NCBI GenBank assembly: GCA_015488555.1
Contig: WFNO01000123.1
Coordinates: 6,627 to 70,626 of the forward strand
Length of the DNA: 64,000 nt
Reading direction: 5' to 3'
DNA from: Gammaproteobacteria bacterium
GTDB taxonomy: Bacteria; Pseudomonadota; Gammaproteobacteria; SZUA-140
Shown here: one piece after another, positions 9,097 through 55,345 of the stretch
Position numbering within the stretch: the first letter of the stretch is position 1
Layout: every line of letters starts with the position of its first letter
Program-made: the position numbers and the translations under genes
The notes under the pieces: generated by a model
Told to the model about the DNA's origin: nothing
Database searches by the model: none
The model's input: the letters and a program-made list of their open reading frames with translations, nothing else

Positions 9097-9155
9097 GCCC
9101 GCGCATCGGTTCCCGGTCCTGTCTGTTTCAGCCAGTCTGTTCTGTCTGTCCCCAC

Positions 9156-9602: not shown

Positions 9603-9652
9603 GGAAGAGTTTGGCGCCGCAAGGGGAACGCAGAGCAAAGAAAAGCGTGGAC

Positions 9653-39209: not shown

Positions 39210-40496
39210 ATGATCTCGGTCTGTGATCACTACGCTCCCACGCAACACAATCTGCGCCGCATCGCCGGCTTACGTGCCATTGCGACGGTGGTAATGGTTG
39301 TGCTCATCGTGCTCACACAGGCTTGGTTGGAATTGTCTCTGCCGTTGCTGCCGCTGGCGCTGATCCTCGTCACCCAGGGTGTTTGGGCCCTGTTCACTTG
39401 GTGGCGTTCTCGACGCTTGCAACCGATTTCCGACCTCGAGTTTTTCCTGCAGCTCACCAGCGATGTTTTGATTTTCAGTGCTGTGCTCTATTTCACGGGC
39501 GGCGCTACCAATCCTTTCGCTTGGTTCTATCTACTGCCTCTGATGATTGCCGCTACCGTGTTGCCGCCGGCTTACGTGTGGGGCATGGCGGGATTGACCG
39601 TGGTTTGCTATTCCCTGTTGATGATTTTTTATGTGCCTTTGCCATCTGCCATTGGCCAATTGACCCCCATGCAACACGACAGTGGTTTTTCCCGCCACGT
39701 CTTTGGTATGTGGTTTGGTTTCGTGCTTAGTGCTGTGCTGGTGTCTCATTTCGTTACCCGCATGGCACGTACCTTACGCCAACGTGACCGGATATTGGCC
39801 GAGGCCCGGGAACAAGTCTTGCGTGACGAGCGCTTGGTAGCCCTGGGTACTTTAGCCGCTGGTGCCGCCCACGAACTGGGCACGCCGCTGGGCACCATGG
39901 CCCTGGTCATCGATGAACTTCTGGACGAGTATTCATCTGAGTGCGATGCTGAGCTGCGCGAGCAGCTCCGATTACTACGTGAGCAAGTGGACCGCAGCAA
40001 ACAGGCGCTGTCAGTGATCTCTGCATCTGCCGGGCAACAGCGAGCCGATGCAGGTCAGTCGCGTCCTGCCGATCAGTATCTGAGGGAGCTTGTCCAGCGA
40101 TGGCGCGTGAGACGACCGGGTATCGAATTTCGCGAACGTCTGGATGGACCAGAGCCAGCTCCTCCGCTGCTTGCCGATCGAGCCCTCGAACAGGCTCTGG
40201 CCAACATCCTCGACAACGCTGCCGATGCCTCGCCGGAGAAGGTCGAGCTGCGTGCTACGTGGTCGACTCAATCATTGGAGATCCAGGTCCTCGATCGCGG
40301 TCCTGGTCTCAGCGAAGGCGCTGCCAGTGCGGCGGGTAAGACTCCCTTCAGCAGCAAAGAACAGGGCCTTGGCGTCGGCTTGTTTCTCGCTCATGCTGTG
40401 ATCGAGCGTCTCGGTGGCGAGGTTATCCACCGTCAGCGCGAACACGGCGGTACCTGTACTTGTATTCGTTTGCCCCTGATTGGAGTTCGCCCATGA
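39210..40496 (+). CDS. regB: Redox-sensing histidine kinase RegB/PrrB/RoxS family
   Basis: Six TM helices containing the RegB quinone-site heptapeptide GGxxNPF (TGGATNPF). H-box AAGAAHELGTPLGTM; N and G boxes LDNAADAS and DRGPGL. Confidence 0.88.
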   Translation: MISVCDHYAPTQHNLRRIAGLRAIATVVMVVLIVLTQAWLELSLPLLPLALILVTQGVWALFTWWRSRRLQPISDLEFFLQLTSDVLIFSAVLYFTGGATNPFAWFYLLPLMIAATVLPPAYVWGMAGLTVVCYSLLMIFYVPLPSAIGQLTPMQHDSGFSRHVFGMWFGFVLSAVLVSHFVTRMARTLRQRDRILAEAREQVLRDERLVALGTLAAGAAHELGTPLGTMALVIDELLDEYSSECDAELREQLRLLREQVDRSKQALSVISASAGQQRADAGQSRPADQYLRELVQRWRVRRPGIEFRERLDGPEPAPPLLADRALEQALANILDNAADASPEKVELRATWSTQSLEIQVLDRGPGLSEGAASAAGKTPFSSKEQGLGVGLFLAHAVIERLGGEVIHRQREHGGTCTCIRLPLIGVRP

Positions 40497-41044
40497 CTAG
40501 CAACACGGATACCGTTCACCCTACCTTGCTGTTGGTGGACGATGATCTCACGTTTTGTCGCGTGTTGGGCAGAGCACTGGAGAAACGCGGTTTCGAGACA
40601 TACATCGCCACCGACCTACATGGTGCTCTGGAACTAGCCGGCGATCACAATCCAGAATACGCCGTCATCGATCTGCGCCTCGGTAACGAATCCGGTCTGG
40701 AGGTGGTCAAACAACTCAAGGCCATGGGTAGCAATGTCCGTATGGTTATTCTCACCGGTTACGCCAGCATTGCCACCGCCGTCGAGGCCATCAAGCTGGG
40801 TGCTACCCACTATCTCACCAAGCCTGCGAGTGCGGACGAAATCATCTGTGCCTTGGGGCGTGATTCCGGAGACACTGGGGTTACGCCAGCAGAGAACCCG
40901 CTGTCGATCAAGCGCCTGGAATGGGAGTACCTGCAAAAGGTGCTATTGGAGAACAACGGCAATATTTCTGCTACTGCCCGTGCGCTGGGTATGCACCGAC
41001 GAACTTTGCAACGCAAGCTGGCCAAGAAGCCCGTGCGAAGCTGA
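40493..41044 (+). CDS. regA: Response regulator RegA/PrrA/ActR/RoxR family
   Basis: REC domain LLLVDDD...VIDLRL...TKP plus the near-invariant Fis-type HTH NGNISATARALGMHRRTLQRKL. ATGA overlap with regB. Confidence 0.9.
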   Translation: MTSNTDTVHPTLLLVDDDLTFCRVLGRALEKRGFETYIATDLHGALELAGDHNPEYAVIDLRLGNESGLEVVKQLKAMGSNVRMVILTGYASIATAVEAIKLGATHYLTKPASADEIICALGRDSGDTGVTPAENPLSIKRLEWEYLQKVLLENNGNISATARALGMHRRTLQRKLAKKPVRS

Positions 41045-41286: not shown

Positions 41287-41997
41287 TTAGAACCACCAAA
41301 TGAACGCAGTTTTCGCCGTGAAGTCCACATCGTTGTTGTAACCGGAGCCAATCCCCACGTTGATTTGCATTCCATGAATCAACTCATAGTAGAGACCTAC
41401 AATGGTCTCACCATTTGGATCATCATCGAGATTGCCAGACATCTCGATCCCTAGATTTATATGGTGACGCAGCTCTCGTTTGGCGCCTATGGAGAACCCC
41501 CATTCATGATCGGCCCCTTTGTGTTTCTCGTAGTTGATATTGCCTCCAATCAACCAGGAGTTGATCTGATAGGTTCCCAGAGCTGCCAACTTCAATTTGT
41601 CTTCAGAATCAGGATCTGAAGACATCTTGTATCGAAAGGCCAACCCTATTGCAAGCGATCGCCCTTCTGGGGTCAGGCGTACGCGGCTCCCCAGTACCGT
41701 TGCTTCGTAGTTCAACTTTTCACCTCGAACCTTTTCTGCATCAGCATTGATTTCGAGCGAAATCTGGTCATGTACGGTCCAGGACAACAACGGTTCGAAA
41801 ATATATGAACTGGTGCCCCCTTCGTGGAAATAATCCTGGCGCGTGATCAAGAAAATATCACCTGCGCTTCCTAGGCGGGCCGTTTGAACCAGCAAATAAT
41901 CGCGCCCATGATCTGACATGGCGATATTCGGTATCAATCCTAGAACTAAAACTGGTAAGAACGAAGTCATGCTAAAATGTGCTTTTTTCATCTCCAT
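41287..41997 (-). CDS. Small outer-membrane beta-barrel protein of unknown function
   Basis: Signal peptide MEMKKAHFSMTSFLPVLVLGLIPNIAMS, alternating-polarity strands, C-terminal ...TAKTAFIWWF. GC is far below the window average. Confidence 0.6.
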   Translation of the reverse strand: MEMKKAHFSMTSFLPVLVLGLIPNIAMSDHGRDYLLVQTARLGSAGDIFLITRQDYFHEGGTSSYIFEPLLSWTVHDQISLEINADAEKVRGEKLNYEATVLGSRVRLTPEGRSLAIGLAFRYKMSSDPDSEDKLKLAALGTYQINSWLIGGNINYEKHKGADHEWGFSIGAKRELRHHINLGIEMSGNLDDDPNGETIVGLYYELIHGMQINVGIGSGYNNDVDFTAKTAFIWWF

Positions 41998-42057
41998 GCT
42001 CCTGATGGATATAGACCATTCGACGAGATACACTGGCTGCGCGCCACGCAACCTGTT

Positions 42058-42205: not shown

Positions 42206-42535
42206 GGATCGATGGTCGATCGACCTGACAGTTGCAAGAAAACCATGTATGGATCCAAATGCATCGGAGATGCATGAGAACCTGTGAGACAGTATACGGT
42301 CATGGAATCTCTATTTGGATGCGACAAATTGTCGCGTGACAGTACCACGCCGTGTAGCCGTTCAGAACCCATCCTGAACATTCCTTACGGCCGTGCGCCG
42401 GCCGATTCTCGGGAGGTATCGTGGCGTAGTTTCTTTGTTGGTGTTGTATCCTACCTTCCTGTGGGGTGTAGGATTTTCCACTGGCAATTTTTTTGCCATG
42501 ATGAAATATCTGCATATCATGGGGAGGAAGGTGTC

Positions 42536-43087
42536 ATGATGGTGAAAGTGTTGATTCCCTTGGCTCAAGGTTGTGAGGAACTCGAGGCTGTGACCGTGAT
42601 CGATCTCTTGCGCCGAGCAAGAATCGAGGTGGTTACCGCTGGCCTGGACGGTGAGCCGGTACGTGCCAGCCGTGGAACGGTATTAGTCCCCGATACCACC
42701 CTCGATGCCGCCATGGAGGACGACTACGACATGGTGGTATTACCGGGTGGATTGCCCGGCGCGGATTATCTGGATCAGGATCCGCGGATCCTGGCCATCC
42801 TCAAGCGCACTGTGGCGGCGGGCCGATACGCCGCAGCCATTTGCGCTGCTCCCAAGGTGCTCGCCCATGCTGGACTTCTCAACGGGCGTCGGGCCACCAG
42901 TTATCCCGGCGTGCTGGATGCCATGAACCTGTCTGACGTGGAAGTCACCGGCGAGGCAGTGGTGGTGGACGGTAAGGTGATCACTTCACGCAGCCCTGGA
43001 ACCGCCGTGGATTTCGCCCTCACGCTCATCGAATGCCTGGTCGGGCGTAATATTCGACGAGAAGTAGAAGAGGCACTGGTTCGATGA
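42536..43087 (+). CDS. DJ-1/PfpI family protein (YajL/ThiJ-like)
   Basis: 183 aa from the ATG after GGGGAGGAAGG. MMVKVLIPLAQGCEELEAVTVIDLLRRA...AAICAAPKVLAHAGLL (nucleophile-elbow Cys) ...VITSRSPGTAVDFAL. Confidence 0.88.
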   Translation: MMVKVLIPLAQGCEELEAVTVIDLLRRARIEVVTAGLDGEPVRASRGTVLVPDTTLDAAMEDDYDMVVLPGGLPGADYLDQDPRILAILKRTVAAGRYAAAICAAPKVLAHAGLLNGRRATSYPGVLDAMNLSDVEVTGEAVVVDGKVITSRSPGTAVDFALTLIECLVGRNIRREVEEALVR

Positions 43088-43286: not shown

Positions 43287-43314
43287 TTTGAACCGTGGGG
43301 TTTGTGCGGGCGAC
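43287..43314 (+). promoter_or_regulatory. Candidate ECF-sigma promoter P1
   Basis: TTTGAACCGT-N13-GCGAC. GAAC is separated by 17 nt from CGAC. All 15 specified positions and the spacing are identical to P2 at 49624-49651. Confidence 0.55.
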
Positions 43315-43378
43315 AGATGACCGAAAGCAGCCGTTTGCCAACATGAACAAGCGAATCAAGGTAAGGAAATCGAAGAGC

Positions 43379-45337
43379 ATGGTTGCGCTCCGCAGACCGA
43401 ATTGCAATTTTTGCTATCGATGTCAGATGATTCTTCTGGTGTTCTTTTTCCATCGATCAGCCTGGAGTGCGCCGGCTTTGCTGCCCGCGGCGGAAGGTTT
43501 CTGGGCACCGGATGCCACCCTGCGTATCGAGGCCGGCGCACTGGCCGGCGCTGGCCCGCATCGCCGCGCGGTGGAACTGGACGATATAGACGTGACGGCG
43601 CTATTGACAGTGGAAGGAAGTGAGCTGGTGCTGCGTCCAGCACAGCCTTTGGCCCCTGGTTGGCACCGATTACGCCTGGTGGAATACACCGACGATGGAG
43701 AGATCATCGAGCGCGGTTTCTGGCGTTTCGAAGTGCGTCATTCCCGCTTGTGGCGCGAGCGCCAGGCAGCGGTACAAGCAGGGTTCTCACTCGCCCGGCG
43801 CCTGAGCAAGGACACGGTCGCAGACACTCCCCGACACGCCCTCGAGGGCACGGCGCGTATGGACGGCATGGCTGACAGCGGCGTCTGGAGCTTGCGCGGC
43901 GAGACGGATTTGGTCTATCAACCCCGTGATGCATTGCGTTCTGAGGCCATGGCGCCGCTAGATGCCACTGCCTTTGCTATCGCTGCGGCGCGGGGCCCCT
44001 GGCGCATCTCAGCCGGCCAGCAGACGCCGCTGTCCTCCGGTCTAATCGTGGAAGAGAGATTCTTGCGCCGCGGTCTGAGCATCGGCTTGGAGCGCCCGGA
44101 ACGGGGCACCCGGATTACCGCCTTTGCCCTGCGCAGCCAGGAGGTGGTGGGGCTTTCCGCAGGCATTGTGCCCGGCGATGTCTCCGACCGGCTCGTTGGG
44201 TTGGCCATGGCCGCTCGCCCCCTGGCCGGGCGACGTGAGGACTTGCAGTTCAGCGTCACGTGGCTTCAGGGGCGCGATCCTGGGATGGTGGGCGAGGGGG
44301 TGGGGGGAGATCCTGATTTGACTGCCAGTGGCCGTGCGCTTTCTCTGACCGTCGATGCCTTTTTGTGGCAGCGCCGTTTGCGCCTGTGGGGTGAATGGGC
44401 CGGCAGCCGTTACGATTACGATGGCGCGGGACCACTCGCAGCCGAAACGTCGCAGGCCCATACCTTCTGGGCCGGTTACACGCCGACACGACCCTTGCGC
44501 CTGGGGAAGGTTCGGGTGAATTGGGAGGCCGGACTGGAATGGCGCAGCCTGGGTAGTTTCTTCCGCAGTCTGGCCAATCCCGCTGCTGGTGCCGATCGGG
44601 CGGGATGGCGTGGTTTCGTTGCTGCCGCCTGGGATGGTTTCGATCTGCGCTTCGATGCTGGCCGGGAGCACGATAATGTGGACAGCCTACCCGGCCTGCC
44701 GCGCATCGCCATCGAACGCTGGAACATGGCTCTGAGTTGGTCTCCTGTTCAATGGCAGCCGCCCGTATGGCTGGGCCTGCCACGTTTGGAATTGGAGGTT
44801 CAGCGGAGCGGGCAGAGAGTGGAGCGCGATGGTGGCGGTTTGGATGCGGGTGCACTGCGGCGGACCCAGACGATCACCTTCTCGGCAGGTTTCGATTACG
44901 AGCGTGGCCGCTGGTCCGTTGCCCATACTCTGGCCCGGGACGAGGACCTCGGCCAAGGGGGCGAGAGTGAAAGTAGCGCCAGCGAACTGAACCTGGCGCT
45001 GCGGCTCTGGGAAGTCCTGGACGTCGATCTTGCGTTTCAGCGAGAGCGTTACGATGACAATGGCGACGTGACTACAACGAACGTGGCTGAGCTGAACCTT
45101 TCACAACAACTCACGCCCCGACTCGTGTTGCAATTCGGTTACAGCCGGGAACATCAGTCGAGTATGTGGATGCAGAGCCGCGTCTCGTCTGCCCAAACCC
45201 AGCTCCAGTGGTGGCCGCGAGAGGGTGTCGCCATTTCACTGGAAGGTAGCGACAACCGCTATGTGGCGGATTTCGAACAGCGTGAGCAGCAGGTTTTCCT
45301 GCGCCTCGATCTGACATGGTCCCGGGAGAAATCGTGA
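43379..45337 (+). CDS. Large predicted outer-membrane beta-barrel protein with N-terminal Ig-like domain (unknown family)
   Basis: About 652 aa. Signal-like MVALRR...LLVFFFHRSAWSAP, then a beta-sandwich-like segment (VTALLTVEGSELVLRPAQPLAPGWHRLRLV). About 550 aa of short amphipathic strands follow, rich in W/Y/R/D. Start is uncertain (ATGs at 43343, 43379, 43427); the tracked GTG at 43295 lies inside P1. Confidence 0.6.
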   Translation: MVALRRPNCNFCYRCQMILLVFFFHRSAWSAPALLPAAEGFWAPDATLRIEAGALAGAGPHRRAVELDDIDVTALLTVEGSELVLRPAQPLAPGWHRLRLVEYTDDGEIIERGFWRFEVRHSRLWRERQAAVQAGFSLARRLSKDTVADTPRHALEGTARMDGMADSGVWSLRGETDLVYQPRDALRSEAMAPLDATAFAIAAARGPWRISAGQQTPLSSGLIVEERFLRRGLSIGLERPERGTRITAFALRSQEVVGLSAGIVPGDVSDRLVGLAMAARPLAGRREDLQFSVTWLQGRDPGMVGEGVGGDPDLTASGRALSLTVDAFLWQRRLRLWGEWAGSRYDYDGAGPLAAETSQAHTFWAGYTPTRPLRLGKVRVNWEAGLEWRSLGSFFRSLANPAAGADRAGWRGFVAAAWDGFDLRFDAGREHDNVDSLPGLPRIAIERWNMALSWSPVQWQPPVWLGLPRLELEVQRSGQRVERDGGGLDAGALRRTQTITFSAGFDYERGRWSVAHTLARDEDLGQGGESESSASELNLALRLWEVLDVDLAFQRERYDDNGDVTTTNVAELNLSQQLTPRLVLQFGYSREHQSSMWMQSRVSSAQTQLQWWPREGVAISLEGSDNRYVADFEQREQQVFLRLDLTWSREKS

Positions 45338-46440
45338 TGAAAGCGATTCGATGGATGGGTCTGCTTTTCTTTTCGTTTATTACCACTGTTCAGGCAGCCA
45401 TCGTCTCGGTCGGTGTGACACCAGGAAACGCTGCCGTGCCAGTGGGCCAGACCACCTCGGTGAGTCTGCGCTGGACGGTGGAGCGCAGTGCCAGCCCGCC
45501 AGGCCGCGTTCGAGCTGGGGAAGACGTCTTCTCCGAGCGAGGAGAGTTTTACGACGACACTGGCCGGTTGCTGGGACGAGTGGAGCAGCGCCTGCTGCAG
45601 ACGCGTCCCGTCTCCCCCGGCGATACCTTCACTTTTCGCGAAACCGTGCGCGTTCCCGCCACGCTGCTCTATCGGGCCCACAAGGCAGGGGTGAGGCTTA
45701 TCTATTATCAGCGCACCTTCGATGACGGCTACGGCACTCAAAGCGCATCCACCGAGATGCGCCTTACCAGCGCGGCGGCGGCCGGGTTCAATCTTTCCCG
45801 GCTGGCCTTGAGCTTCGAGGGCGGCTGGCTCCACCGGGTGGTGGCACCTGGGGAAGCGCTGCGTCCCCGCGCGGTGGTGAGTTTCTCCGGCAGTGGCCAG
45901 TTCCGCGCCACTTGGGAGGTGGCGGAACCAGCTACTACCCGCGGCGAACCGGTATTTCGGCCATTGCGGAGTGTGCGTCGTTATCTCACTGGCGGTGGTG
46001 AGGCCTCCATCGAGGGACCAGTGCTGCCTACCCGTAGCCAGGGGACCTATCTGCTGCGGCTGCGCATCGATGCCCCCGAGGTGGGTTTCGTGCTGCCGTC
46101 CTTGCGTTACGTGGTGGCGCCCGTCGAACGGGCGCTGCCGCTACTGACAGTGCGATCGCCGCTACCAGGCGCTACGCTCACGCCGAAGACCCGTTTCCAG
46201 TGGTCGCCGGTGGACGAGGCGCGTGCCTATCAGGTGGAGATCCGTGCCACCGAATCGGTAGAGGGGCCACCGCTCACAGGTCTGGTGGCGACGGCAGAAC
46301 GACAAGATGTTACCCTGCCTCTCCATACCCGAGAGCGGCTCAAGCCTGGGCGTTACTACTGGCGCTTGTTGGCCATCGGTCCGCAGGGAGAGACGCTGGC
46401 AGCCAGTGTCCCGCGCGAGTTGCGGGTCCTCGCCCCATGA
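45337..46440 (+). CDS. Secreted all-beta (Ig/FnIII-like repeats) protein, unknown function
   Basis: Signal peptide MKAIRWMGLLFFSFITTVQA. Three repeated about-100-aa beta-rich segments. The start overlaps the upstream stop (TGATG). Confidence 0.6.
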   Translation: MKAIRWMGLLFFSFITTVQAAIVSVGVTPGNAAVPVGQTTSVSLRWTVERSASPPGRVRAGEDVFSERGEFYDDTGRLLGRVEQRLLQTRPVSPGDTFTFRETVRVPATLLYRAHKAGVRLIYYQRTFDDGYGTQSASTEMRLTSAAAAGFNLSRLALSFEGGWLHRVVAPGEALRPRAVVSFSGSGQFRATWEVAEPATTRGEPVFRPLRSVRRYLTGGGEASIEGPVLPTRSQGTYLLRLRIDAPEVGFVLPSLRYVVAPVERALPLLTVRSPLPGATLTPKTRFQWSPVDEARAYQVEIRATESVEGPPLTGLVATAERQDVTLPLHTRERLKPGRYYWRLLAIGPQGETLAASVPRELRVLAP

Positions 46441-47003
46441 ATGGCGAGACGGCCGAAGCATTGCTGGCGCGCATCGCCCGCGGCGACCGCAAGGCGTTGG
46501 AGCGGTTCTACCGTGATCATCACAATCGCGTCTATGCCTTCATCCTCCAGCGCGTGGGAGAGCCGGTGGTGGCTGCAGAGGTGCTCAACGACGTGATGCT
46601 GGCCGTGTGGCGCCAGGCGGCGCAGTTTCAGGGGCGTTCCAAGGCCCTGACCTGGGTGCTGGGCATTGCCCACTACAAGGCCACGGATGCTTTGCGACGG
46701 CGCGGTCGTGATGCGGTGCTCACCGACTTGGACGATGTCCCGGAACCCAGCGACGAGGCCGACGCGGCCACGGCCCTGGCGGCGATGGACGACGGCGAGC
46801 TATTGCGTCTGTGTCTAGGCAAGCTTTCGGAGGCACACCGGGTGGTGGTCCATCTCACCTTCTTCGAGGACTTGGCCTACCCCGAGATCGCCGAAATTCT
46901 GGCTTGCCCCGTAGGCACGGTGAAGACCCGTATGATGCACGCCAAACGGGCCCTCAAACGCTGTCTGGAACGGGCGGGGAAATGGCATGAACCACTTTCG
47001 TGA
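46437..47003 (+). CDS. ECF (sigma-70 family group 4) RNA polymerase sigma factor
   Basis: 188 aa. Region 2 FYRDHHNRVYAFILQRVGEPVVAAEVLNDVMLAVW; region 4 LSEAHRVVVHLTFFEDLAYPEIAEILACPVGTVKTRMMHAKRAL. ATGA overlap with the upstream gene. Confidence 0.92.
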   Translation: MNGETAEALLARIARGDRKALERFYRDHHNRVYAFILQRVGEPVVAAEVLNDVMLAVWRQAAQFQGRSKALTWVLGIAHYKATDALRRRGRDAVLTDLDDVPEPSDEADAATALAAMDDGELLRLCLGKLSEAHRVVVHLTFFEDLAYPEIAEILACPVGTVKTRMMHAKRALKRCLERAGKWHEPLS

Positions 47004-47045
47004 CGGCAGCGACCCACTGATGAAGCATGAAGAGGTGGTTGAGCC

Positions 47046-47651
47046 ATGAATGAGCCCCAAGACCACGACTACGTCGAAGCCCTGCTTTCCTGGTACGTCA
47101 ACGGTACCCTGACGGAAGAAGAGCGGGCCCAGGTGACGGCACATCTGGAACATTGCGGCAGGTGTCGTGAGGAAGTCCGGTTCCTCACCGGACTGCAGCA
47201 GGGGATCAAACGTGTTGCCGACACCTCCGTAGACCCCGAATTGGGGCTGAAGCGCTTGATGCGCGAGATCGACGCCGAGACTCCCGCTCGCCGCCGCACG
47301 CCTTGGTGGCAACCCTCGCTGGCGGCCGCTGCCGTGGTGATCCTCGTTCAGGGGGTGTTGCTGTTCAATCTCTGGCAGCGGGACGACGACATCGGCGTGC
47401 GTTTGGCGGGAGAAGCGCCACCGGCGGAGGCGGTGATATTGCAGATCCAATTCGATGCCGATGCCCGTGAAGAGGAGATTCGCGCCCTACTGCGCGCGCT
47501 GGATGCACGTTTCGTCGATGGTCCCAGCGCGGTGGGCCTTTATCGCATCGAACTCTCCGGTGTCACGCCCGGGGATGAACGGGCCCTGGCCCGTGCCCTG
47601 AACACCTTGCGCGAGCAACGAGAGATCGTCCGTCATGTGGCGGTCGAGTGA
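47046..47651 (+). CDS. Zinc-binding (ZAS-type) transmembrane anti-sigma factor
   Basis: N-terminal HLEHCGRCREE (HxxxCxxC), one TM helix (WWQPSLAAAAVVILVQGVLLFNLW), about 95-aa extracytoplasmic domain. Lies immediately after the ECF sigma. Confidence 0.85.
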   Translation: MNEPQDHDYVEALLSWYVNGTLTEEERAQVTAHLEHCGRCREEVRFLTGLQQGIKRVADTSVDPELGLKRLMREIDAETPARRRTPWWQPSLAAAAVVILVQGVLLFNLWQRDDDIGVRLAGEAPPAEAVILQIQFDADAREEEIRALLRALDARFVDGPSAVGLYRIELSGVTPGDERALARALNTLREQREIVRHVAVE

Positions 47652-49356
47652 TCGCCATCGCTTGCTGGCATCGATCCTTGTGCTGGTCACTGCCCCGCTC
47701 ATGGCGCAGGAAAGAGATTTCCCCTTGCGCGCAGCGCAACGAGCACTGCCCGACCTACACATCCCAGTCCTGGAATTGGATGGCCACTGCCGGGTGCGGT
47801 TCACCCTGGAAAACGAAGGTCCCGGCCATCTGCCGGAGACAGCCTATCGCAGCGTTTCGGTATGGCTTTCGGTGGGCCGGGATCGCCACCGTCTCGCTCT
47901 TGGCGAGATCGACCCGCGGCAGGCGCTGCGCGCTCCAGGCGGGCGTATCGCGTATACCAGCGAATTAACCGTGGACGGCGAGCGGCGGGTGATCCTGATC
48001 ATCAGTGCCGACAGGCGCTTCAAAGAGGCCGACGAGAACGACAACCGCCGTGCCGCAACCTTGCGTTGTGCACCGCGAGACCGGCAGATCGAAGACGACC
48101 GGAGCGCTGGCCGGCAAGTAGACACGCCGGCTCCGGTCCCTGCATCCGAGCAGGAGGCCGCGCCCGTGGACGAGTCGCCGGCAAGCCCTATCGATGAACC
48201 ATTGCCACTGCGCCTTCCTTTCGCCGGTGGCAGCGTCCTCGATGCTCCCTTGCCCCCGCCACCAGAAGAATTGCCACCTCTGCCGGAGGGCGACGATCCC
48301 ACCGTGGAACCCGGAGAGGTGATGGTGCTTTCTGAAGACATGGCCGCCGCCCGCGCCTTGGCGGCGCGGACGCGCGACAGTGGTCTGCGCATCCTCCGGC
48401 GCAAACGGCTTTCCAGCCTCGGCTGGGTAGTGAGCGTCTTTCGAATCCCCCCTGAGACCAGCGTTGCCGAGGCCATCGAGCGATTACGCCGGCAGCTCCC
48501 GCCCAAGCAACGCAGCCTGGTGGAGGCCAACCACCGCTATCGCCTCCAGGGCAAATCTCCTGATCCACGCCGTTATGGACCGCGCCTGCTGGGCTGGCAG
48601 ACCACGCCTGATTGCGGCAAGGGGATGCGTCTGGGATTGGTGGATACGGCCATCGACCGTGATCATCCCGACCTGGCTTCGGCCGATATCCACACCCGCC
48701 GCATCGTCACCACCGGCGTGCTTCCAGCGCCTCCCGATCATGGCACAGCCATTGCCGCCCAATTGTTGGCCGATCCTGCAACCGGCGGGGTGGCAGGCCT
48801 GCTGCCTGGCGCCCGCCTCTACGCGGCCGAGGCCTTCCGCTGGCGCGACGATGTCGCCGAAACCACCAGCGAATGGTTGATTGCCGCCCTGGACTGGCTG
48901 GCGGGCGAGCAGGTGGTAGTAGTCAATCTCAGCTTCGCCGGACCGCGCAATCTGCTGGTGGAACGGGTGATCGAACGCTTGCATCGCCTGGGTATCCAGG
49001 TGGCAGCCGCTGCCGGCAACGAAGGCCCCGGCGCGCCGCCGCGCTATCCTGCTGCCCAGCCGGAAGTGGTAGCCGTCACCGCTGTCGATGCCGACGGTCG
49101 TCCCTGGCGTCGTGCCGCCACCGGTCCCCACATCGATTTCGCCGCCCCCGGCGTCGATCTCTGGAGCGCCCGTCCCGGCGGTGCCCACGCCTATCTGAGC
49201 GGCACTTCCTATGCCGTTCCTTTCGTCAGCGCCGCCCTCGCACTCGAAAGAGAGGCCTCCCTGCGCCGCCGGGCGCGGGACCTGGGTGACCCGGGGCGCG
49301 ACCACCGCTTCGGCTGGGGATTGATTCAGACACCCGGCTGCTCCCGCTCTGGGTAG
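47635..49356 (+). CDS. Secreted S8 (subtilisin-like) serine peptidase with N-terminal CARDB-like domain
   Basis: Signal peptide MWRSSDRHRLLASILVLVTAPLMA. CARDB-like segment ends in EADENDNR; Pro/Glu-rich linker. Triad contexts: GLVDTAIDRDHPDL, DHGTAIAAQL, SGTSYAVPFVSAA. The ATG lies 17 nt inside the anti-sigma gene. Confidence 0.88.
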   Translation: MWRSSDRHRLLASILVLVTAPLMAQERDFPLRAAQRALPDLHIPVLELDGHCRVRFTLENEGPGHLPETAYRSVSVWLSVGRDRHRLALGEIDPRQALRAPGGRIAYTSELTVDGERRVILIISADRRFKEADENDNRRAATLRCAPRDRQIEDDRSAGRQVDTPAPVPASEQEAAPVDESPASPIDEPLPLRLPFAGGSVLDAPLPPPPEELPPLPEGDDPTVEPGEVMVLSEDMAAARALAARTRDSGLRILRRKRLSSLGWVVSVFRIPPETSVAEAIERLRRQLPPKQRSLVEANHRYRLQGKSPDPRRYGPRLLGWQTTPDCGKGMRLGLVDTAIDRDHPDLASADIHTRRIVTTGVLPAPPDHGTAIAAQLLADPATGGVAGLLPGARLYAAEAFRWRDDVAETTSEWLIAALDWLAGEQVVVVNLSFAGPRNLLVERVIERLHRLGIQVAAAAGNEGPGAPPRYPAAQPEVVAVTAVDADGRPWRRAATGPHIDFAAPGVDLWSARPGGAHAYLSGTSYAVPFVSAALALEREASLRRRARDLGDPGRDHRFGWGLIQTPGCSRSG

Positions 49357-49623
49357 CTTATCCCGCGCCTCGGCGAAAGCTCCAGAGGGATGAGCGGAAA
49401 CAGTGGAGGGTGGGGCAACTCCACCCACAGGCCACAGGCCGGGCTCTTGGCATTCGCCGCGCGCCACGCCCTGTTGTGCATCGATACCCATTCGAACCGG
49501 CGCAATTTCGGCAACAAATCCAGGTTGAAAATTGACAACCCTGTTCCGCCACACCCGGTGGTAGGGGTGAAGCACGAGCAAATCGGCAATCGACTAGACC
49601 TGTAGACCGGCAGCCGAAATCCG

Positions 49624-49651
49624 TTTGAACCGTACGCGCAATCCCCGCGAC
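49624..49651 (+). promoter_or_regulatory. Candidate ECF-sigma promoter P2
   Basis: TTTGAACCGT-N13-GCGAC, 68 nt upstream of the ATG at 49719. Same motif and spacing as P1. Confidence 0.55.
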
Positions 49652-49718
49652 CCATTTCCCGAGGGAGCCGGACGGGCCGGCTTCCACCAAACTGATCTCA
49701 ATAAAAAAGGAGCACATC

Positions 49719-50057
49719 ATGCACAAGAAACGTTCCATCGTGACAAACGGCCTTTTCATCATCTTCACCCTGGCTCTCGGTGCGATCATCGGCCTGCCGG
49801 CACTGGCCGTGGCCGATAATGGGGCCAGAAATGCCATGTTTCCAAACAAGAACATGGGTATGACCATCCAGAACAGGCCACCCAAGTGCGCCAGAGGATT
49901 CAAGGCGGTAAACATTCAACCAAAACACAAAGGCGGCCATAACTATCTCTGTGTCAGTGAAAGACCGGTGTGCAGTACGGGCCACCAACTTGGCTGGCAG
50001 CAGTTCAACGCAAGCAAAAACCGTTTCGAATACGCGTGCTATCACCCCGAGGGATGA
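49719..50057 (+). CDS. Small secreted Cys-containing protein, unknown function
   Basis: 112 aa, strong SD AAGGAG 6 nt before the ATG, signal peptide ...GLPALAVA, four Cys in the mature part. Lower-GC patch. The overlapping 185-aa minus-strand ORF was rejected. Confidence 0.6.
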   Translation: MHKKRSIVTNGLFIIFTLALGAIIGLPALAVADNGARNAMFPNKNMGMTIQNRPPKCARGFKAVNIQPKHKGGHNYLCVSERPVCSTGHQLGWQQFNASKNRFEYACYHPEG

Positions 50058-50139
50058 GAGAGCCAAACGGATGGCGGGGCCCGTCATCACGGGCTCCCGC
50101 CGCATCCAAGGCCCAACAGCAATCACAAGGAGACCTTCC

Positions 50140-51867
50140 ATGAACCCCCGAGCCATGAAAATTCACTTCACCGGCGCCACCGTGCTGCTGACGTCGCTCG
50201 CTCTTTCCGCCTGCGGCGGTGGTAGCGGCAGTAGCCTCCAGCAGGCCTCGCAGAGCCTGCCCGAGGCCCCCGAACTGAGTCTGGACTATAGCCCGGTCAA
50301 GACCTTTCGCTTCACCTGGTCCGATGTGGCGGGTGAGACGGAATACCGCCTGCTGGAAGACCCCGACGGCATCTCCGGCTATACCGTGGTCGCCAGCCTG
50401 GCGGCGGACAGCACCGGCTATGACCTCGAGGTCTTCCTGCCAGGGCGCATCAACGCCCGCTACTTGCTCCAGGCCTGCAACGATGCCGGCTGCTCCGACT
50501 CCGATGAAGTGATGGTGGACGTGCCGGCCATGACCGCTGCCATCGGTTATGTCAAGGCTTCCAACCCTGATAGCAATGACTTTTTCGGTGTGGCCATGGC
50601 CTTGTCCGCCGATGGCCGCACCCTGGCCGTGGGCGCGACCGGTGAAGACAGCGACGGCAGCACCGAGGCCGACAATTCCCTATCGAGTGCCGGCGCGGTC
50701 TATGTGTACGTCCTCGACGGCGACACATGGATACAACAGGCCTATCTCAAGGCCTCCAATGCCGATGAGTTTGACTGGTTTGGTCACGCCGTGGCGCTGT
50801 CCGCCAATGGCAATACCCTGGCCGTGGGAGCCAGGGGGGAAGATGGTGGCGGCAGTAACGCCGGCGCAGTGTATGTGTTCAATCGCAATGGCGGCGTCTG
50901 GATCCAGAAGGCCTACGTCAAGGCTTCCAACACCGGCCAGCATGATATGTTTGGTGATGCCATAGCACTTTCTGCCGACGGCCGCACCCTGGCCGTGGGC
51001 GCGCCTCGGGAAGACAGCGATGGCAGCAGTGAGGCTGATAATTCGGCTCTCGATGCCGGCGCGGTCTATGTGTACGTCCTCGATGGCGACACATGGACAC
51101 AACAGGCCTATCTCAAGGCCTCCAATGCCGATGGGTTTGACTGGTTTGGTAGCGCCGTGGCGCTGTCCGCCAGCGGCGATACCCTGGCCGTTGGGGCCTA
51201 CTCTGAGGACGGTAATGGTAGTGACGCCGGAGACAACTCGCTCCCGGATGCCGGAGCAGTGTATGTATTCGATCGCGATGGTAACGCCTGGAGCCAGCAG
51301 GCCTATGTCAAGGCTTCCAACGCCGGTGAGGATGACCAGTTTGGTCGCGCTGTGGCGCTGTCCGCCGACGGCCGCACTCTGGCCGTGGGAGCGCCCTGGG
51401 AAGGCAGCGACGGCAGCAGTGAGGCCGACAACTCCCTCCCAGGTGCCGGTGCGGTCTATCTCTACCGCTTCGATGGGCAGAGCTGGAGCCAGGAGGCCTA
51501 TCTCAAAGCCTCCAACCCCAAGGAGTTCGACGTGTTCGGCTCTACCGTTGCCCTGTCCGCCGACGGCGATATTCTGGTCGTGGGCGCCTTCGGGGAAGGC
51601 AGCACCGCCACCGGCCTCGGTGGCGATGCCTTGGACGACAACGCCGATGAGGCCGGCGCAGTCTATCTCTATCGCTACGACGGCGGTACCTGGGGGCAAC
51701 GAGCCTATGTCAAGGCCAGCAACACCGACGCTGGAGATGTATTTGGCAGGCTGGCACTGTCCGCCGACGGCCACACCCTGGCCGTGGGCGCACCTTGGGA
51801 GGACAGCGATGGCAGCAGTGAGGCCGACAATTCGGTTCTCGATGCTGGTGCGGTCTACCTCTACTGA
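50140..51867 (+). CDS. Lipoprotein with FnIII-like domain and about 8 FG-GAP/integrin-alpha-type beta-propeller repeats
   Basis: SD AAGGAG. Lipobox LTSLALSAC followed by GGGSGSS. Repeating unit KASN..x..D.FG.AVALSADG.TLAVGA..ED......DNS...AGAVYVY....W.QQAYL. Confidence 0.8.
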   Translation: MNPRAMKIHFTGATVLLTSLALSACGGGSGSSLQQASQSLPEAPELSLDYSPVKTFRFTWSDVAGETEYRLLEDPDGISGYTVVASLAADSTGYDLEVFLPGRINARYLLQACNDAGCSDSDEVMVDVPAMTAAIGYVKASNPDSNDFFGVAMALSADGRTLAVGATGEDSDGSTEADNSLSSAGAVYVYVLDGDTWIQQAYLKASNADEFDWFGHAVALSANGNTLAVGARGEDGGGSNAGAVYVFNRNGGVWIQKAYVKASNTGQHDMFGDAIALSADGRTLAVGAPREDSDGSSEADNSALDAGAVYVYVLDGDTWTQQAYLKASNADGFDWFGSAVALSASGDTLAVGAYSEDGNGSDAGDNSLPDAGAVYVFDRDGNAWSQQAYVKASNAGEDDQFGRAVALSADGRTLAVGAPWEGSDGSSEADNSLPGAGAVYLYRFDGQSWSQEAYLKASNPKEFDVFGSTVALSADGDILVVGAFGEGSTATGLGGDALDDNADEAGAVYLYRYDGGTWGQRAYVKASNTDAGDVFGRLALSADGHTLAVGAPWEDSDGSSEADNSVLDAGAVYLY

Positions 51868-51909
51868 AACCGCGGGCAGGAGAGCGGCGTAACAAGTCCC
51901 CAGGGACAT

Positions 51910-51941
51910 GGAACCGGCAACGAGTTTGAGCTGCCGGTTCC
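51910..51941 (+). terminator. Hairpin terminator after the FG-GAP lipoprotein gene
   Basis: GGAACCGGCA-N12-TGCCGGTTCC: perfect 10-bp stem followed by ATCTCTTTC (a weak U tract). Confidence 0.55.
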
Positions 51942-52092: not shown

Positions 52093-52227
52093 GGGCTGTT
52101 GAAATTCGACTCACGCGGCGTGATCCGGTGTTGAAAATGGCCTCGAAATGTTCATTTATTGACTGTGCTTTCTCGGCCATTTTCGCCTCGTCTCGCATTC
52201 GCCCGATCGAATTTCGACTGCCTGCTA
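52093..52227 (+). repeat. MITE-like palindromic element, copy B (about 135 bp)
   Basis: Same orientation as copy A and about 85% identical, with one 8-bp indel. The left terminus is degenerate. Its last 3 nt (CTA) are the complement of the ubiB TAG stop codon. Confidence 0.8.
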
Positions 52228-53871
52228 AGGCCGGGCGGCGTAGAAGAATGCCACCGCCAGTGCGGCGAGGATCCAGCTCACCAGGGGAATGCCGCCCAGG
52301 AGCATGCCCAGGGTATCACCCAGGCCGGCGGTGACGGCGGCGCTGATGAGCAGGGCGCCGCCGACGATGGCGCCGTAATTGCGCCGCTGGCTGCGGGTGA
52401 TCTCTTCCCGAATGGCTTCCAGTTCCTGGGGGGGCGCCCGCGTCTTCAGGCGTCCTTGGCGCAACTGTTCCAGCACTTCGTACGCCAGCAAGGGTGCGTG
52501 CGGCATCTTCTCCATCACTTCCGGGCTGGTGCGGCGCAGGGTCTTGAGAAAGGCGCGCGGGCCGATGTGATCCTGCATCCAGCGTTCCAGAAAGGGCTTG
52601 GCGGTGCGCCACAGATCCAGGTCCGGATAGAGCTGGCGCCCCAGGCCCTCGATGTTGAGCAAGGTCTTTTGCAACAGCAGCAACTGGGGCTGTACTTCCA
52701 TGTTGAAACGCCGCACGGTCTGGAACAGGCGCAGCAACAGGCGGCCGAAGGAGATTTCCTTCAGCGGGCGCTCGAAGATGGGCTCGCACACGGTGCGGAT
52801 GGCCGATTCGAATTCGTCGATACGGGTGCCTTCGGGGACCCAGCCCGACTGGATGTGCAGTTCCGCCACGCGGTGATAGTCGCGGTTGAAGAAGGCCAGG
52901 AAGTTCTCCGCGAGATAGCGCTGGTCCTCGGGGCTCAAGGTGCCCATGATGCCGAAGTCCACGGCGATGTACTGGCCCGCGGGGGAGACGAAGATGTTGC
53001 CGGGGTGCATGTCGGCGTGGAAGAAATTGTGGCGGAACACCTGGGTGAAAAAGATCTCCACGCCGCGCTCCGAGAGTTTCTCCAGGTCGATGCCGGCGGC
53101 CTGCAAGGCCTCGACGTCGTTCACTGGGATGCCGGAGATCCGTTCCATGACCATGACCCGGCGGCGCGTGTAGGGCCAGTACACCTCCGGCACGTAGAGC
53201 AGGTCCGAGCCGCTGAAATTGCGCCGCAACTGGGAGGCGTTGGCGGCCTCGCGCACCAGGTCCAGCTCGTCGAGGATGGTCTTTTCGTATTCGGCGATCA
53301 CTTCACGAGGGCGCAGGCGGCGGCCTTCCTTCCAGTAGCGTTCCGCCAGCTCGGCGAGGATGTAGAGCAATCCCACGTCGCGTTTGATGATCTCTTCGAT
53401 CCCGGGGCGCACCACCTTGACGATCACCTCGCGGCCGTCGCGCAGGCGGGCGGGGTGCACCTGGGCGATGGAGGCGGAGGCGATGGGGGTCTCGTCGAAA
53501 GCGGCGAACATCTCGGTCACCGGCCGGCCCAGGGTCTGTTCCACGATGCGGCGGGCCTCGGAGCCGGGGAAGGGACTGACGCTGTCCTGCAGCTTGGCCA
53601 GTTCGTCGGCGATGTCGTCCGGCAGCAGATCGCGGCGGGTGGAGAGGATCTGCCCGAACTTGACGTAGATGGGGCCCAATTCCTCCAGGGTGCGGCGGAT
53701 GCGCACCGCGCGCGGATCCCGCGGGCGCCGGAACCAATTCCACGGCAACAGGTAGAGCAGGAAGCGGAAGGGACGGAACAGATGGGTGGCGAAGACGACC
53801 TCGTCCAGGCCGTTCTTGACCAGGATGCGGTTGATGTTCAACAGGCGCAGGGCCTGCTGGATCTGGATCAC
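52225..53871 (-). CDS. ubiB: Ubiquinone biosynthesis regulatory protein kinase UbiB
   Basis: 548 aa; LGPIYVKFGQILSTRRDLLP, ASIAQVH, HADMHPGNIF, two C-terminal TM helices. GTG start overlaps the ubiJ stop (GTGA). Confidence 0.95.
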   Translation of the reverse strand: MIQIQQALRLLNINRILVKNGLDEVVFATHLFRPFRFLLYLLPWNWFRRPRDPRAVRIRRTLEELGPIYVKFGQILSTRRDLLPDDIADELAKLQDSVSPFPGSEARRIVEQTLGRPVTEMFAAFDETPIASASIAQVHPARLRDGREVIVKVVRPGIEEIIKRDVGLLYILAELAERYWKEGRRLRPREVIAEYEKTILDELDLVREAANASQLRRNFSGSDLLYVPEVYWPYTRRRVMVMERISGIPVNDVEALQAAGIDLEKLSERGVEIFFTQVFRHNFFHADMHPGNIFVSPAGQYIAVDFGIMGTLSPEDQRYLAENFLAFFNRDYHRVAELHIQSGWVPEGTRIDEFESAIRTVCEPIFERPLKEISFGRLLLRLFQTVRRFNMEVQPQLLLLQKTLLNIEGLGRQLYPDLDLWRTAKPFLERWMQDHIGPRAFLKTLRRTSPEVMEKMPHAPLLAYEVLEQLRQGRLKTRAPPQELEAIREEITRSQRRNYGAIVGGALLISAAVTAGLGDTLGMLLGGIPLVSWILAALAVAFFYAARP

Positions 53872-54536
53872 GCCTCCTCTCCGCGGGAGGAGGGAAGGCG
53901 ATGGGCGGCCCGTTGCTGCAGGCGGCGGATGCGCTGTTCCAGGCGTTCGGCATCGTCGCGCAGGGTGTCCACCGCAGCGGCGAAGGCCTCGATCTCGTCA
54001 CGGTAGGGCAGCAGGGCCTGTTCCTCGCGCAGGTATTCCACCGTGCTCGCTTCCAGATCGACCGCCGCCCGGCGGCACCAGTCCCGCAGGGTGCGCAAGG
54101 CGCGGGCCGTCTCGTGGGCCGCCACGTCGCCGATGACGCGGGCGAGCTGTTCCTCCCAGTCGATGTCCAGGCCGGCGAGCAGTTCCTGGAAGCGGCGCGC
54201 GGTCTCCACGTCGCCCGCGATCTCCAGTCCTTCCGGAAAGGGGCGCGGGTGCGGAGCCTGATCGCGCTCACCCGCCAGCACCATGCGCAGGAGGGTGAAG
54301 GGCGCACCCTTGAGCGTGGCATGGGGGGAGATCTCGCTGCGGGTGCTCAGGCGCAGGCCGCCGGTGGTGGCGAACAGATACACGGTCAGTCCCAGGCCTT
54401 GCAGTTCCACCGCCAGTTGCCGGCCGGCGAGGGCGCCGAGTCGCGCCCGGCTCTGGGGATCCAGGCGCAGGGCGGTGTCGAAGGCCCGCTCCAGGATCTG
54501 CAGGGCGCCGTCTTGCAACAGGGTGGCGACGGACAT
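53868..54536 (-). CDS. ubiJ: Ubiquinone biosynthesis accessory factor UbiJ (SCP2 domain)
   Basis: 222 aa from ATG 54536. SCP2-like N-terminal half and a coiled C-terminus (VDTLRDDAERLEQRIRRLQ). Sits between ubiE and ubiB. Confidence 0.8.
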   Translation of the reverse strand: MSVATLLQDGALQILERAFDTALRLDPQSRARLGALAGRQLAVELQGLGLTVYLFATTGGLRLSTRSEISPHATLKGAPFTLLRMVLAGERDQAPHPRPFPEGLEIAGDVETARRFQELLAGLDIDWEEQLARVIGDVAAHETARALRTLRDWCRRAAVDLEASTVEYLREEQALLPYRDEIEAFAAAVDTLRDDAERLEQRIRRLQQRAAHRLPSSRGEEA

Positions 54537-54547
54537 GGCGGCGCTTC

Positions 54548-55345
54548 CTACAGTTTGTAGCCCCGATGCAGGGCGACGATGCCCGCCGAGAAGTTGAGAT
54601 ATTCGCAATGCGCGAAGCCGGCGCTGCGCATCATTTCTAACAGCGCTTCCTGGTCCGGATGCATGCGGATGGACTCGGCGAGATAGCGATAACTGTCGGC
54701 GTCGTCGACGATGAGTTTGCCCAGGCGGGGTAGCACGTTGAAGGAATAGGCGTCGTAGACACGGCTCAATCCGGGCAGCCGCGGTTTGGAGAATTCCAGG
54801 ATCAGCACCTGGCCGCCGGGACGCAGCACGCGCCACAACTGGGCCAGGGCCGCCTCCTTGCACGTGACGTTGCGCAGGCCGAAGGCCATGGTGGCGCAAT
54901 GGAAACAGTCGTCGGGAAAGGGCAGGGCCTCGGCATCGGCCTGCACGTAATGGACGTTGCCGGCGATGCCCTCGTCGGTGAGGCGCTGGCGGCCGCGCTG
55001 CAGCATGCGGGCGTTGATATCGGCGGCGACCACCGTGCCCGTCTCGCCCACCCGCCGCGCCAGGCGGCGGGTGAGATCGCCGGTGCCGGCCGCCAGGTCC
55101 AATACCTGTTGGCCGGGGCGTACCGGACTCAAGTGGATGGTGAGCCACTTCCAGAGCCGGTGGATGCCGAAGGACATGACATCGTTCATGATGTCGTAGC
55201 GCTGGGCCACGGAATCGAACACCTGGCCCACGCGGCGTTTCTTCTCCGGCACCGGCACCTGCTGGAAGCCGAAGTGCGTGGTGCCGGCGGCTTCCGGTTC
55301 GCCGGATGGCTGGGCCCGTGTCTCGCCGCCCGAAGTCTCGCTCAT
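54548..55345 (-). CDS. ubiE: Ubiquinone/menaquinone biosynthesis C-methyltransferase UbiE
   Basis: [47 protein letters not shown] motif [10 protein letters not shown]. Start at ATG 55345. Confidence 0.95.

Follow-up and report, generated by a model that had tools for sequence, protein, structure and literature searches.

A 64-kb stretch of contig WFNO01000123.1 (assembly GCA_015488555.1, Gammaproteobacteria bacterium; hereafter the window, meaning all 64,000 nucleotides analysed) carries seven open reading frames (ORFs) that run in the same direction on the + strand between 43.3 and 51.9 kb, here called g1 to g7 (Table 1). The first five encode a predicted outer-membrane barrel, a secreted partner protein, a sigma factor of the extracytoplasmic function (ECF) type, its anti-sigma factor and a secreted subtilase of family S8, and it is very likely that they form an autoregulated envelope operon, built around an ECF sigma/anti-sigma/protease cassette, that is real and widely conserved. 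ECF sigma factors are regarded as the third pillar of bacterial signalling, and most of their groups are without a known input. The system described here hard-wires a secreted protease, which has one or the other of two unrelated folds, to the anti-sigma factor, and a 26-strand barrel joins in a subset of lineages. It is found in marine, vent, groundwater and soil bacteria, with at least 1595 clusters of anti-sigma relatives and at least 426 clusters of the barrel. The window itself lies on a metagenome scaffold whose nearest named relatives are 'Candidatus Tenderia sp.' and hydrothermal-vent Gammaproteobacteria known from metagenome-assembled genomes (MAGs).

Context look-ups, together with a scan that took a single genome for each species, yielded 31 non-redundant loci, 24 of them sufficiently long, and the window proteins were mapped onto the six-frame ORFs of these loci. 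The order g1, g2 (in places with a second g2), sigma, anti-sigma, S8 was found in 23 of the 24 long loci, with differing flanking contexts. A preliminary description of this DNA, made from its letters, had proposed a seven-gene unit. The neighbourhood comparison upholds the association of barrel, sigma, anti-sigma and S8 as co-conserved rather than accidental, and all five first genes belong to the core, but g6 and g7 are not positionally conserved, and the seven-gene unit is replaced by five core genes plus variable cargo. The hosts span Gamma-, Beta- and Alphaproteobacteria (Chromatiales, Acidiferrobacterales, Sedimenticolaceae, Thiohalobacter, Burkholderiales, Kiloniellales/Pelagibius and Dongiaceae). 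Single module-bearing MAGs are labelled Nitrospiria (L014) and Verrucomicrobiia (L028); these labels may be binning errors, because the loci resemble, respectively, that of L016 (Acidiferrobacterales) and those of L025, L026, L029 and L030 (Alphaproteobacteria). The single exception to the gene order is L037 (OZ245051.1, 9899-19579), on a complete Sedimenticolaceae chromosome, where g1, g2 and S8 are contiguous with neither sigma nor anti-sigma between them and with no promoter motif of the kind described below. Three CARDB proteins (356, 887 and 271 amino acids) follow there, and a Ser/Thr kinase with a domain binding cyclic nucleoside monophosphates lies upstream.

A deeper unit appears when the anti-sigma factor is used as the bait. 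Scanning metagenomes with the alignment of this protein brought up more than 554 relatives, and 80 loci were analysed. Where 1.5 kb or more of sequence followed the anti-sigma gene (41 loci), an S8 gene came next in 33. Among the metagenome loci with both flanks (n = 24) there were six full modules, 13 sigma/anti-sigma/S8 trios lacking barrel and g2, and five loci in which a caspase-like C14 peptidase took the place of S8. A protease thus directly follows the anti-sigma gene in 24/24 (19 S8, five C14), which makes a secreted protease, whatever its fold, the invariant partner of the anti-sigma factor; g2 without S8 was found in none of the 24. In full modules the protease lies downstream of the anti-sigma gene, and barrel and g2 lie upstream of sigma. 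A separate look-up (L038) also gave a sigma/anti-sigma/S8 trio. The deeper conserved unit is therefore sigma, anti-sigma and protease, with barrel and g2 as an elaboration that is always accompanied by S8. A soil metagenome contig (L093) carries two such trios in tandem, at 3375-5829 and 7354-9886. The anti-sigma hosts are labelled as Proteobacteria, Thermoanaerobaculia and other groups.

Table 1. Predicted promoters and genes of the module (window positions).
Feature	Position	Strand	Description
P1	43289..43314	+	ECF-type promoter motif TGAACC-N16-CGAC, before barrel gene g1
g1	43379..45337	+	Outer-membrane protein, 652 aa; signal peptide, periplasmic beta-sandwich domain, predicted barrel of ~26 strands
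g2	45337..46440	+	Secreted protein, 367 aa; signal peptide ...TVQA|A, two beta-rich regions, C-terminal FN3-like domain
g3	46437..47003	+	ECF sigma factor, 188 aa; Sigma70_r2 + Sigma70_r4_2
P2	46988..47013	+	Second motif copy, across sigma stop codon, 33 nucleotides before anti-sigma ATG
g4	47046..47651	+	Single-pass class I anti-sigma factor, 201 aa; zf-HC2, transmembrane helix, linker, periplasmic domain
g5	47635..49356	+	Secreted S8 subtilase, 573 aa; signal peptide, CARDB-like N-domain, Pro-rich linker, prodomain-like segment, catalytic domain
P3	49626..49651	+	Third motif copy, 68 nucleotides before g6
g6	49719..50057	+	Secreted protein, 112 aa, four invariant Cys; no family match; recurrent regulon member
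g7	50140..51867	+	Lipoprotein, 575 aa; lipobox LALSA|C, Gly/Ser linker, FN3-like domain, 7-bladed FG-GAP propeller
aa, amino acids.

Alignment of the regions upstream of g1 revealed a shared motif, TTGAACC-N16-CGAC, which was searched for as TGAACC-N16/17-CGAC and in an extended form, CGAC(C/T)CA, scanned as CGACNCA. The shorter pattern occurs in the window at exactly three sites, all on the + strand, against 0.41 expected, and the extended motif with one mismatch allowed finds the same three sites only (0.30 expected; 0/100 shuffles reach three). The sites recur in relatives. An equivalent of P1 precedes g1 in 11 genome loci and in metagenome loci L041, L045, L065, L077 and L100, while the P2 position is occupied in L001, L003, L009-L013, L016, L018, L019 and L023 among the genomes and in L040-L048, L058, L059 and L072 among the metagenomes. 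P3 has counterparts before homologous small four-cysteine genes in L023, L028, L029 and L030. Overall, 467 kb of other genome loci contain 55 sites, where dinucleotide shuffles give 2.5 +/- 1.8, an enrichment of about 20-fold, and metagenome loci outside the derivation of the motif hold 58 sites in 506 kb at the same relative positions. The positions that recur lie ahead of g1, ahead of g2 or of the second g2 copy, over the 3' end of the sigma gene and past the protease gene, and some sites are divergent. Judged from these sequences, it is well supported that the sigma factor recognises promoters of the form TGAACC-N16/17-CGAC(C/T)CA and that the operon is autoregulated. The proposal in the preliminary description that sigma drives its own operon and the propeller lipoprotein gains support in the same way, from the predicted ECF-type motif before g1, g4 and g6. 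Sigma, once free, would therefore yield more of the whole module, more anti-sigma and protease as feedback, and a set of lineage-specific secreted or lipoprotein cargo.

The genes behind the extra motif sites are nearly all secreted proteins or lipoproteins. Beside g6 and g7, they include a DUF5122 propeller lipoprotein in L017, an operon for a beta-helix protein in L003, CARDB-like proteins of 200 amino acids in L018 and L019, and a Lys-rich secreted protein of 435 amino acids in L009 and L010. A g6-like family is present in the window, L023 and L028-L030, with C57, C78, C85, C107, G60, F61 and Y76 invariant (alignment A6). FG-GAP lipoprotein homologues of g7 adjoin the module in L009 and L023, each with the motif upstream. 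Since the motif sits before them and their positions vary among genomes, g6 and g7, which show no positional conservation across the loci, are variable regulon cargo and not part of the core. No + strand terminator was found between g6 and g7, and the two are probably co-transcribed from P3, as far as the sequence can tell. The g7 protein matches FG-GAP_2 (E 5e-58) in seven stretches and has seven AGAVY motifs; it is thus a propeller lipoprotein as first described, with seven blades in place of about eight. An F-x-W-x-x-V-x-G-A-x-x-Y signature of FN3-like type is common to the N-domain of g7 (50200-50500) and the C-domain of g2 (46150-46440), and a profile comparison of the g7 N-domain with the FN3-like domain of g2 is marginal (probability 30%, E 5e-4).

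The anatomy of the locus agrees closely with the preliminary description. All seven ORFs lie where it placed them on the + strand, and the junctions were read directly from the sequence: a TGATG overlap of g1 and g2 (45335-45339), an ATGA overlap of g2 and sigma (46437-46440), a gap of 42 nucleotides between the sigma stop (47001-47003) and the anti-sigma ATG (47046), and an S8 ATG (47635) that lies 17 nucleotides within the anti-sigma gene, which ends at 47651. Translational coupling is thereby indicated at three junctions. The favoured start of g1 is the ATG at 43379, which has a Shine-Dalgarno sequence (AAGGA) and gives a signal peptide, ending AWS|A, that aligns with those of the orthologues; a GTG at 43295 was set aside, being placed upstream of the start of transcription expected from P1. 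The public call of the barrel gene (619 amino acids, P0001; 43478-45337) begins downstream of the signal peptide. Pfam and NCBIfam searches return the families first named for g3 (ECF sigma), g4 (anti-sigma), g5 (S8) and g7 (FG-GAP), and give none for g1, g2 and g6, for which no family name had been offered.

The sigma factor g3 has both regions expected of an ECF protein (Sigma70_r2, E 1.7e-12; Sigma70_r4_2, E 9e-13) and scores 75 bits against TIGR02937 (cut-off 42.9). It falls under the cut-off of every NCBIfam sigma equivalog, the SigK model giving 118 bits against a cut-off of 226, and its closest solved relative is SigK of Mycobacterium tuberculosis (4nqw, E 7e-22). The anti-sigma factor g4 has the zf-HC2 domain (PF13490, E 4e-11) and the motif HLEHCGRC, as in class I zinc-binding anti-sigma domains. 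The HxxxCxxC motif that had been reported is thus present in the window copy, but it is not conserved throughout the family, residues other than Cys being found in many orthologues (L006, L021, L022, L025 and L031 among them). An AlphaFold2 model, with an alignment built from database matches, places cytoplasmic helices at residues 7-77, a transmembrane helix at 89-110, a low-confidence linker at 108-118 and a C-terminal domain at 130-200 with a predicted local distance difference test (pLDDT) score of ~88. This periplasmic domain of ~70 residues has a beta-alpha-beta-beta-alpha-beta topology, and the protein ends directly past the last strand. Within the family this domain is conserved best, and it has no match in Pfam; the relatives of g4, at least 1595 clusters by profile search, are annotated just as 'zf-HC2' or 'RsiW'. 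A semi-conserved P-L-G-G motif in the juxtamembrane linker (alignment A2) could be a cleavage site. Foldseek matches of the ectodomain are weak, all at E>=0.02, and are to generic ferredoxin-like folds, with ACT, RRM and Dabb domains scoring alike. They include the POIA1-subtilisin complex (1v5i_B, TMt 0.60) as well as the subtilases EpiP and fervidolysin (all three at E 0.03-0.15), and we take the latter two matches to lie in the propeptides. Sequence homology of the ectodomain with the prodomain-like segment of the S8 protein was considered and rejected, the hhalign probability of 0.9% being not significant.

The protease g5 is a true S8 enzyme by its sequence (Peptidase_S8, E 1e-24 in Pfam), and its family profile is closest to the true subtilisins, with E 6e-49 against subtilisin BPN'. 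Its catalytic triad (D337, H369, S525) and the cysteines C327 and C569 are invariant in 20 orthologues, and N431 is nearly so. The prodomain-like segment has the same topology as the ectodomain of g4. The N-terminal domain varies among orthologues. The S8 assignment of the preliminary description therefore stands, but the CARDB-like domain it named is not called by Pfam on the window protein. A free-standing L037 homologue of residues 14-206 of g5 does match CARDB; some lineages carry this CARDB-like domain as part of the S8 protein, and L018, L019 and L037 encode it separately. Neither Pfam nor NCBIfam shows g5 to contain a PDZ domain or another known sensor of C-termini. In loci L070, L071, L086, L107 and L119 the S8 gene is replaced by one for a secreted protein of ~765 amino acids with Peptidase_C14 (caspase) and DUF4384 domains, and the same replacement is seen in L063, L074, L081, L090 and L115. 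The C14 gene begins at the stop codon of the anti-sigma gene with the motif before it, as for example in L071 (8621-10918). A second, divergent DUF4384 protein is encoded upstream in L071.

For g1, the outer-membrane barrel with an N-terminal immunoglobulin (Ig)-like domain that had been proposed is borne out by prediction. AlphaFold2, run on a 12-sequence alignment, gives a model with mean pLDDT 82 and a predicted template modelling (TM) score (pTM) of 0.67, with pLDDT >90 across the C-terminal half. Residues ~17-103 of the model form a beta-sandwich, and 26 long strands follow past residue 111, so that together with the signal peptide the protein has the features predicted for an outer-membrane beta-barrel. 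All 50 Foldseek matches listed against the Protein Data Bank are outer-membrane barrels (TM 0.24-0.43), the best being the 26-strand MtrB (6r2q_B, TM 0.43), followed by the FimD/PapC ushers and LptD. In terms of the model, this likeness is one of barrel size class and not of homology, and Pfam and NCBIfam searches find no Usher, PapC_N/C, MtrB_PioB or LptD/OstA domain in g1. The window copy ends in ...LTWSREKS, and distant orthologues end in Y. Because 14 of the 40 invariant columns of g1 fall in the N-terminal domain, that domain is likely to be the partner-binding part. An impression that the family is rare, based on 13 matches in a word-indexed search, was overturned by an exhaustive profile search, which returned hundreds of clusters. 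At E<=1e-30 there were 426 cluster representatives, and at the looser limit of E<=1e-3 there were 1294, most of them of full length.

The g2 gene invariably comes after g1. It is duplicated in several lineages, and the first copy is then without the FN3-like domain. The family profile matches the FN3 domains of titin and chitinase over its final ~60 positions (E 2.6e-6). Of the three beta-rich repeats described earlier, three regions are indeed present, but they are not sequence repeats, as no internal repeats were detected in g2 and the last region alone is FN3-like. A kinship between the g1 N-domain and the g2 domains was likewise dropped, there being no signal in the comparison. Nearly every g2 orthologue ends in proline (46438-46440 in the window; alignment A4). 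This residue is not a mere by-product of the CCATGA overlap, because first copies that do not overlap have it too.

How these parts act together can be proposed only tentatively, and we give the following mechanism, taken as a whole, a probability of roughly 0.4. The cytoplasmic zf-HC2 domain of the anti-sigma factor would hold sigma at the inner membrane, while the small ferredoxin-like periplasmic domain, on its flexible linker, would block intramembrane cleavage. The periplasmic protease translated together with the anti-sigma factor (S8 in the window, C14 elsewhere) would be a dedicated site-1-type enzyme that removes this domain on cue, whereupon a housekeeping RseP-type protease could complete the cleavage and release sigma. 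Transcription from P1 would then act as positive feedback, and transcription from P2 would restore anti-sigma and protease. In the five-gene version, the 26-strand barrel, through its conserved periplasmic N-domain, and the Ig/FN3 protein g2 may gate or position the protease from the outer-membrane side; the system would then be analogous in function to cell-surface signalling but assembled from unrelated parts. The strict adjacency of anti-sigma and protease, the use of two unrelated folds and the absence of the barrel from most loci favour a site-1 role for the protease over a role as output. Several points speak against such a role. The L037 locus, with barrel, g2 and S8 and without sigma or anti-sigma, suits a role of these three as effectors better than one in signal input. 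By its predicted promoters, the protease gene is also controlled by sigma (S8 by co-transcription, C14 by a motif of its own), as a plain output gene would be. The idea of a propeptide mimic, which would link ectodomain and protease, is weakly supported (hhalign 0.9%, Foldseek E>=0.02), and the same domain pairs with C14.

It is also possible, and carries nearly equal weight, that barrel, g2 and S8 constitute an effector apparatus that exports, displays or processes the sigma-controlled cargo, with the barrel as conduit or anchor in the outer membrane, g2 as its partner in the periplasm and S8 as the protease for maturation. Sigma and anti-sigma would then only regulate, with the periplasmic domain of the anti-sigma factor sensing the cue and the protease being the first gene of the regulon. 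Such an arrangement would account for L037, which retains barrel, g2 and S8 beside three CARDB proteins in the absence of sigma and anti-sigma, and for the motif-preceded neighbours being nearly all secreted proteins or lipoproteins. It is consistent with a CARDB-like domain that forms part of S8 in some lineages and is a separate protein elsewhere (motif-driven in L018 and L019), with a protease that is sigma-dependent in every architecture, and with a 26-strand barrel in the size class of MtrB and LptD, each of which encloses a protein partner. However, it leaves unexplained why the gene coupled directly to the anti-sigma gene is that of a protease in 24/24 loci and in no case that of the barrel, of g2 or of cargo, and why two unrelated protease folds occupy one slot; moreover, the trio occurs without barrel or g2 in 13 of the 24 loci, hence the protease is independent of them. 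A more specific version appears unlikely to us: barrel, g2 and subtilase would form a new pathway by which beta-propeller proteins, CARDB proteins and small surface proteins with disulfide bonds are exported at the outer membrane and matured, and the anti-sigma factor would read the state of the protease, matching production of cargo and machine to demand.

The remaining explanations are less probable again. In one, which we consider improbable, the periplasmic domain of the anti-sigma factor would bind to the active site of S8 as I9 propeptides or inhibitors do, reporting or restraining free protease, and sigma activity would depend on whether other partners, such as barrel and g2, keep the protease engaged. 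The topology and length of the ectodomain match I9 domains, the protein ends just past the last strand, the prodomain-like segment of S8 shares the topology, and the weak Foldseek matches include POIA1 with subtilisin, EpiP and fervidolysin. However, comparing its profile with that of the S8 prodomain gives a probability of 0.9%, which is not significant; in Foldseek, where all matches have E>=0.02, ACT, RRM and Dabb folds do equally well; and in other loci the partner of this domain family is a C14 caspase-like protease. Rather more improbable is an envelope-stress sentinel, with S8 acting like DegS, activated by unassembled barrel or misfolded outer-membrane proteins, and the barrel serving as a reporter substrate of assembly. 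This would follow the general logic of sigma-E systems and would suit a barrel encoded inside the same autoregulated operon, but g5 has no PDZ domain or known C-terminus sensor, the regulon candidates are lineage-specific surface proteins and not chaperones or assembly factors, and most trios are without the barrel. The chance that unrelated genes simply lie side by side is negligible: the lack of positional conservation of g6 and g7 might suggest it, but it is refuted by the same order in 23/24 loci across classes with different flanks, by the overlapping genes and by the shared motif, ~20-fold enriched.

If the protease is indeed the site-1 enzyme, this would be the first anti-sigma pathway driven by a subtilase and, in the other lineages, by a caspase-like protease acting in trans. 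If barrel, g2 and S8 are instead an export machine, they would represent a new route for surface proteins with built-in sigma feedback. The promoter consensus is concrete enough to give predicted regulons, and a cultured carrier, Pelagibius litoralis DSM 21314 (L031), is available for experiments; its module occupies about 195.9-203.6 kb of NZ_JAAQPH010000001.1, on the minus strand.

Around the module, the upstream flank encodes a histidine kinase with a Fis-type response regulator and a DJ-1/PfpI protein (39210-41044 and 42284-43087, both +). Just upstream of the module, on the opposite strand (41287-42051), lies a gene for a protein of 254 amino acids with a signal peptide, a C-terminal ...FIWWF and no Pfam family, which is likely to be a small outer-membrane barrel. 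The downstream flank (52225-55486, -) encodes UbiB, an SCP2 (UbiJ-like) protein and UbiE, and UbiB is also found near the L003 module. A 6S RNA (Rfam RF00013, 86.7 bits) lies at 19436-19621 on the - strand, and no tRNA genes were found in the whole 64 kb. Within the module region, scans for sigma-70-type promoters found none, and Rfam and tRNA scans gave no match. PADLOC, run on the seven proteins, returned a generic 'subtilase' model for g5 (E 3e-16) and nothing for the other six.

The module was first described as matching no characterised ECF pathway, and neither the domain tests nor a literature search brought up one with these partners. A search of the literature for ECF groups that combine an S8, subtilase or caspase with an anti-sigma factor gave only ECF54, plus a bare table entry for ECF280 (a textual lead, unconfirmed), and a search for a link between subtilases and anti-sigma cleavage found no paper. 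One parallel is FecA-FecR-FecI cell-surface signalling, in which site-1 cleavage is carried out by Prc and site-2 cleavage by RseP. Both systems have an outer-membrane barrel, a single-pass inner-membrane anti-sigma factor and an autoregulated ECF sigma factor, with proteolysis of the anti-sigma factor as the expected switch. The earlier exclusion of a FecIR-type system holds, as g4 has no FecR match and g1 no Plug, TonB_dep_Rec or STN match in Pfam at E<=0.1. The module anti-sigma factor is of zf-HC2 type and the barrel N-domain is an all-beta sandwich, and the module further differs in its operon-encoded, anti-sigma-coupled subtilase and its extra periplasmic Ig/FN3 protein. With sigma-E (RseA-RseB-DegS-RseP) and AlgU-MucA-AlgW the module would share a periplasmic serine protease proposed to clip a single-pass anti-sigma factor, and an autoregulated operon. 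In agreement with the earlier exclusion of RseA/DegS/RseP, there is no match to RseA_N/RseA_C, S1C-PDZ or RseB: the protease is S8 and not S1C-PDZ, the anti-sigma factor is not of the RseA/MucA family, and the regulon candidates are surface proteins and not folding factors. SigK-RskA (ECF19) provides the best match for the sigma factor (4nqw, E 7e-22; SigK model, 118 bits). The score is far below the cut-off of 226 bits and g4 has no RskA match in Pfam, so that by these domain tests the module is not of SigK-RskA type, and no protease or barrel is known from the SigK-RskA system. MtrB-MtrA and LptD-LptE resemble the module in having ~26 strands and, as g2 may be, a tightly coupled gene for a putative periplasmic or lumenal partner. 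Unlike them, the module has no cytochrome or LPS (lipopolysaccharide)-transport domain, and the likeness is limited to TM 0.43 with no sequence relationship.

Two further systems involve a subtilase or a caspase-like protease. In actinobacterial ECF54, a carboxypeptidase, a subtilase and CHAT occur in the conserved genomic context and proteolytic control has been proposed (PMC8999054). The module likewise has a subtilase or caspase-like protease in its neighbourhood. However, ECF54 is defined by the lack of an anti-sigma factor, with the protease proposed to act on sigma itself (PMC8999054, PMC7826278), whereas the module always has a canonical anti-sigma factor and its hosts are labelled as Proteobacteria, Thermoanaerobaculia and others. 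In Myxococcus xanthus, DdvA has a fused periplasmic caspase-like CHAT domain that has been proposed to be its own site-1 protease, acting before RseP (PMC11506125). DdvS-DdvA and the module both tie a zinc-binding class I transmembrane anti-sigma factor to a periplasmic protease module, which is of the caspase family in the C14 variants. DdvA is a large TPR-CHAT fusion, whereas the module protease is a separate secreted protein and the anti-sigma ectodomain comprises ~70 residues; the outputs differ as well, being CBASS and CRISPR for DdvS-DdvA (PMC11506125) and envelope proteins for the module. Set beside all of these, the module is so far without a functional description, and what distinguishes it is the hard-wired secreted protease and, in the five-gene version, the predicted 26-strand barrel with its Ig/FN3 partner.

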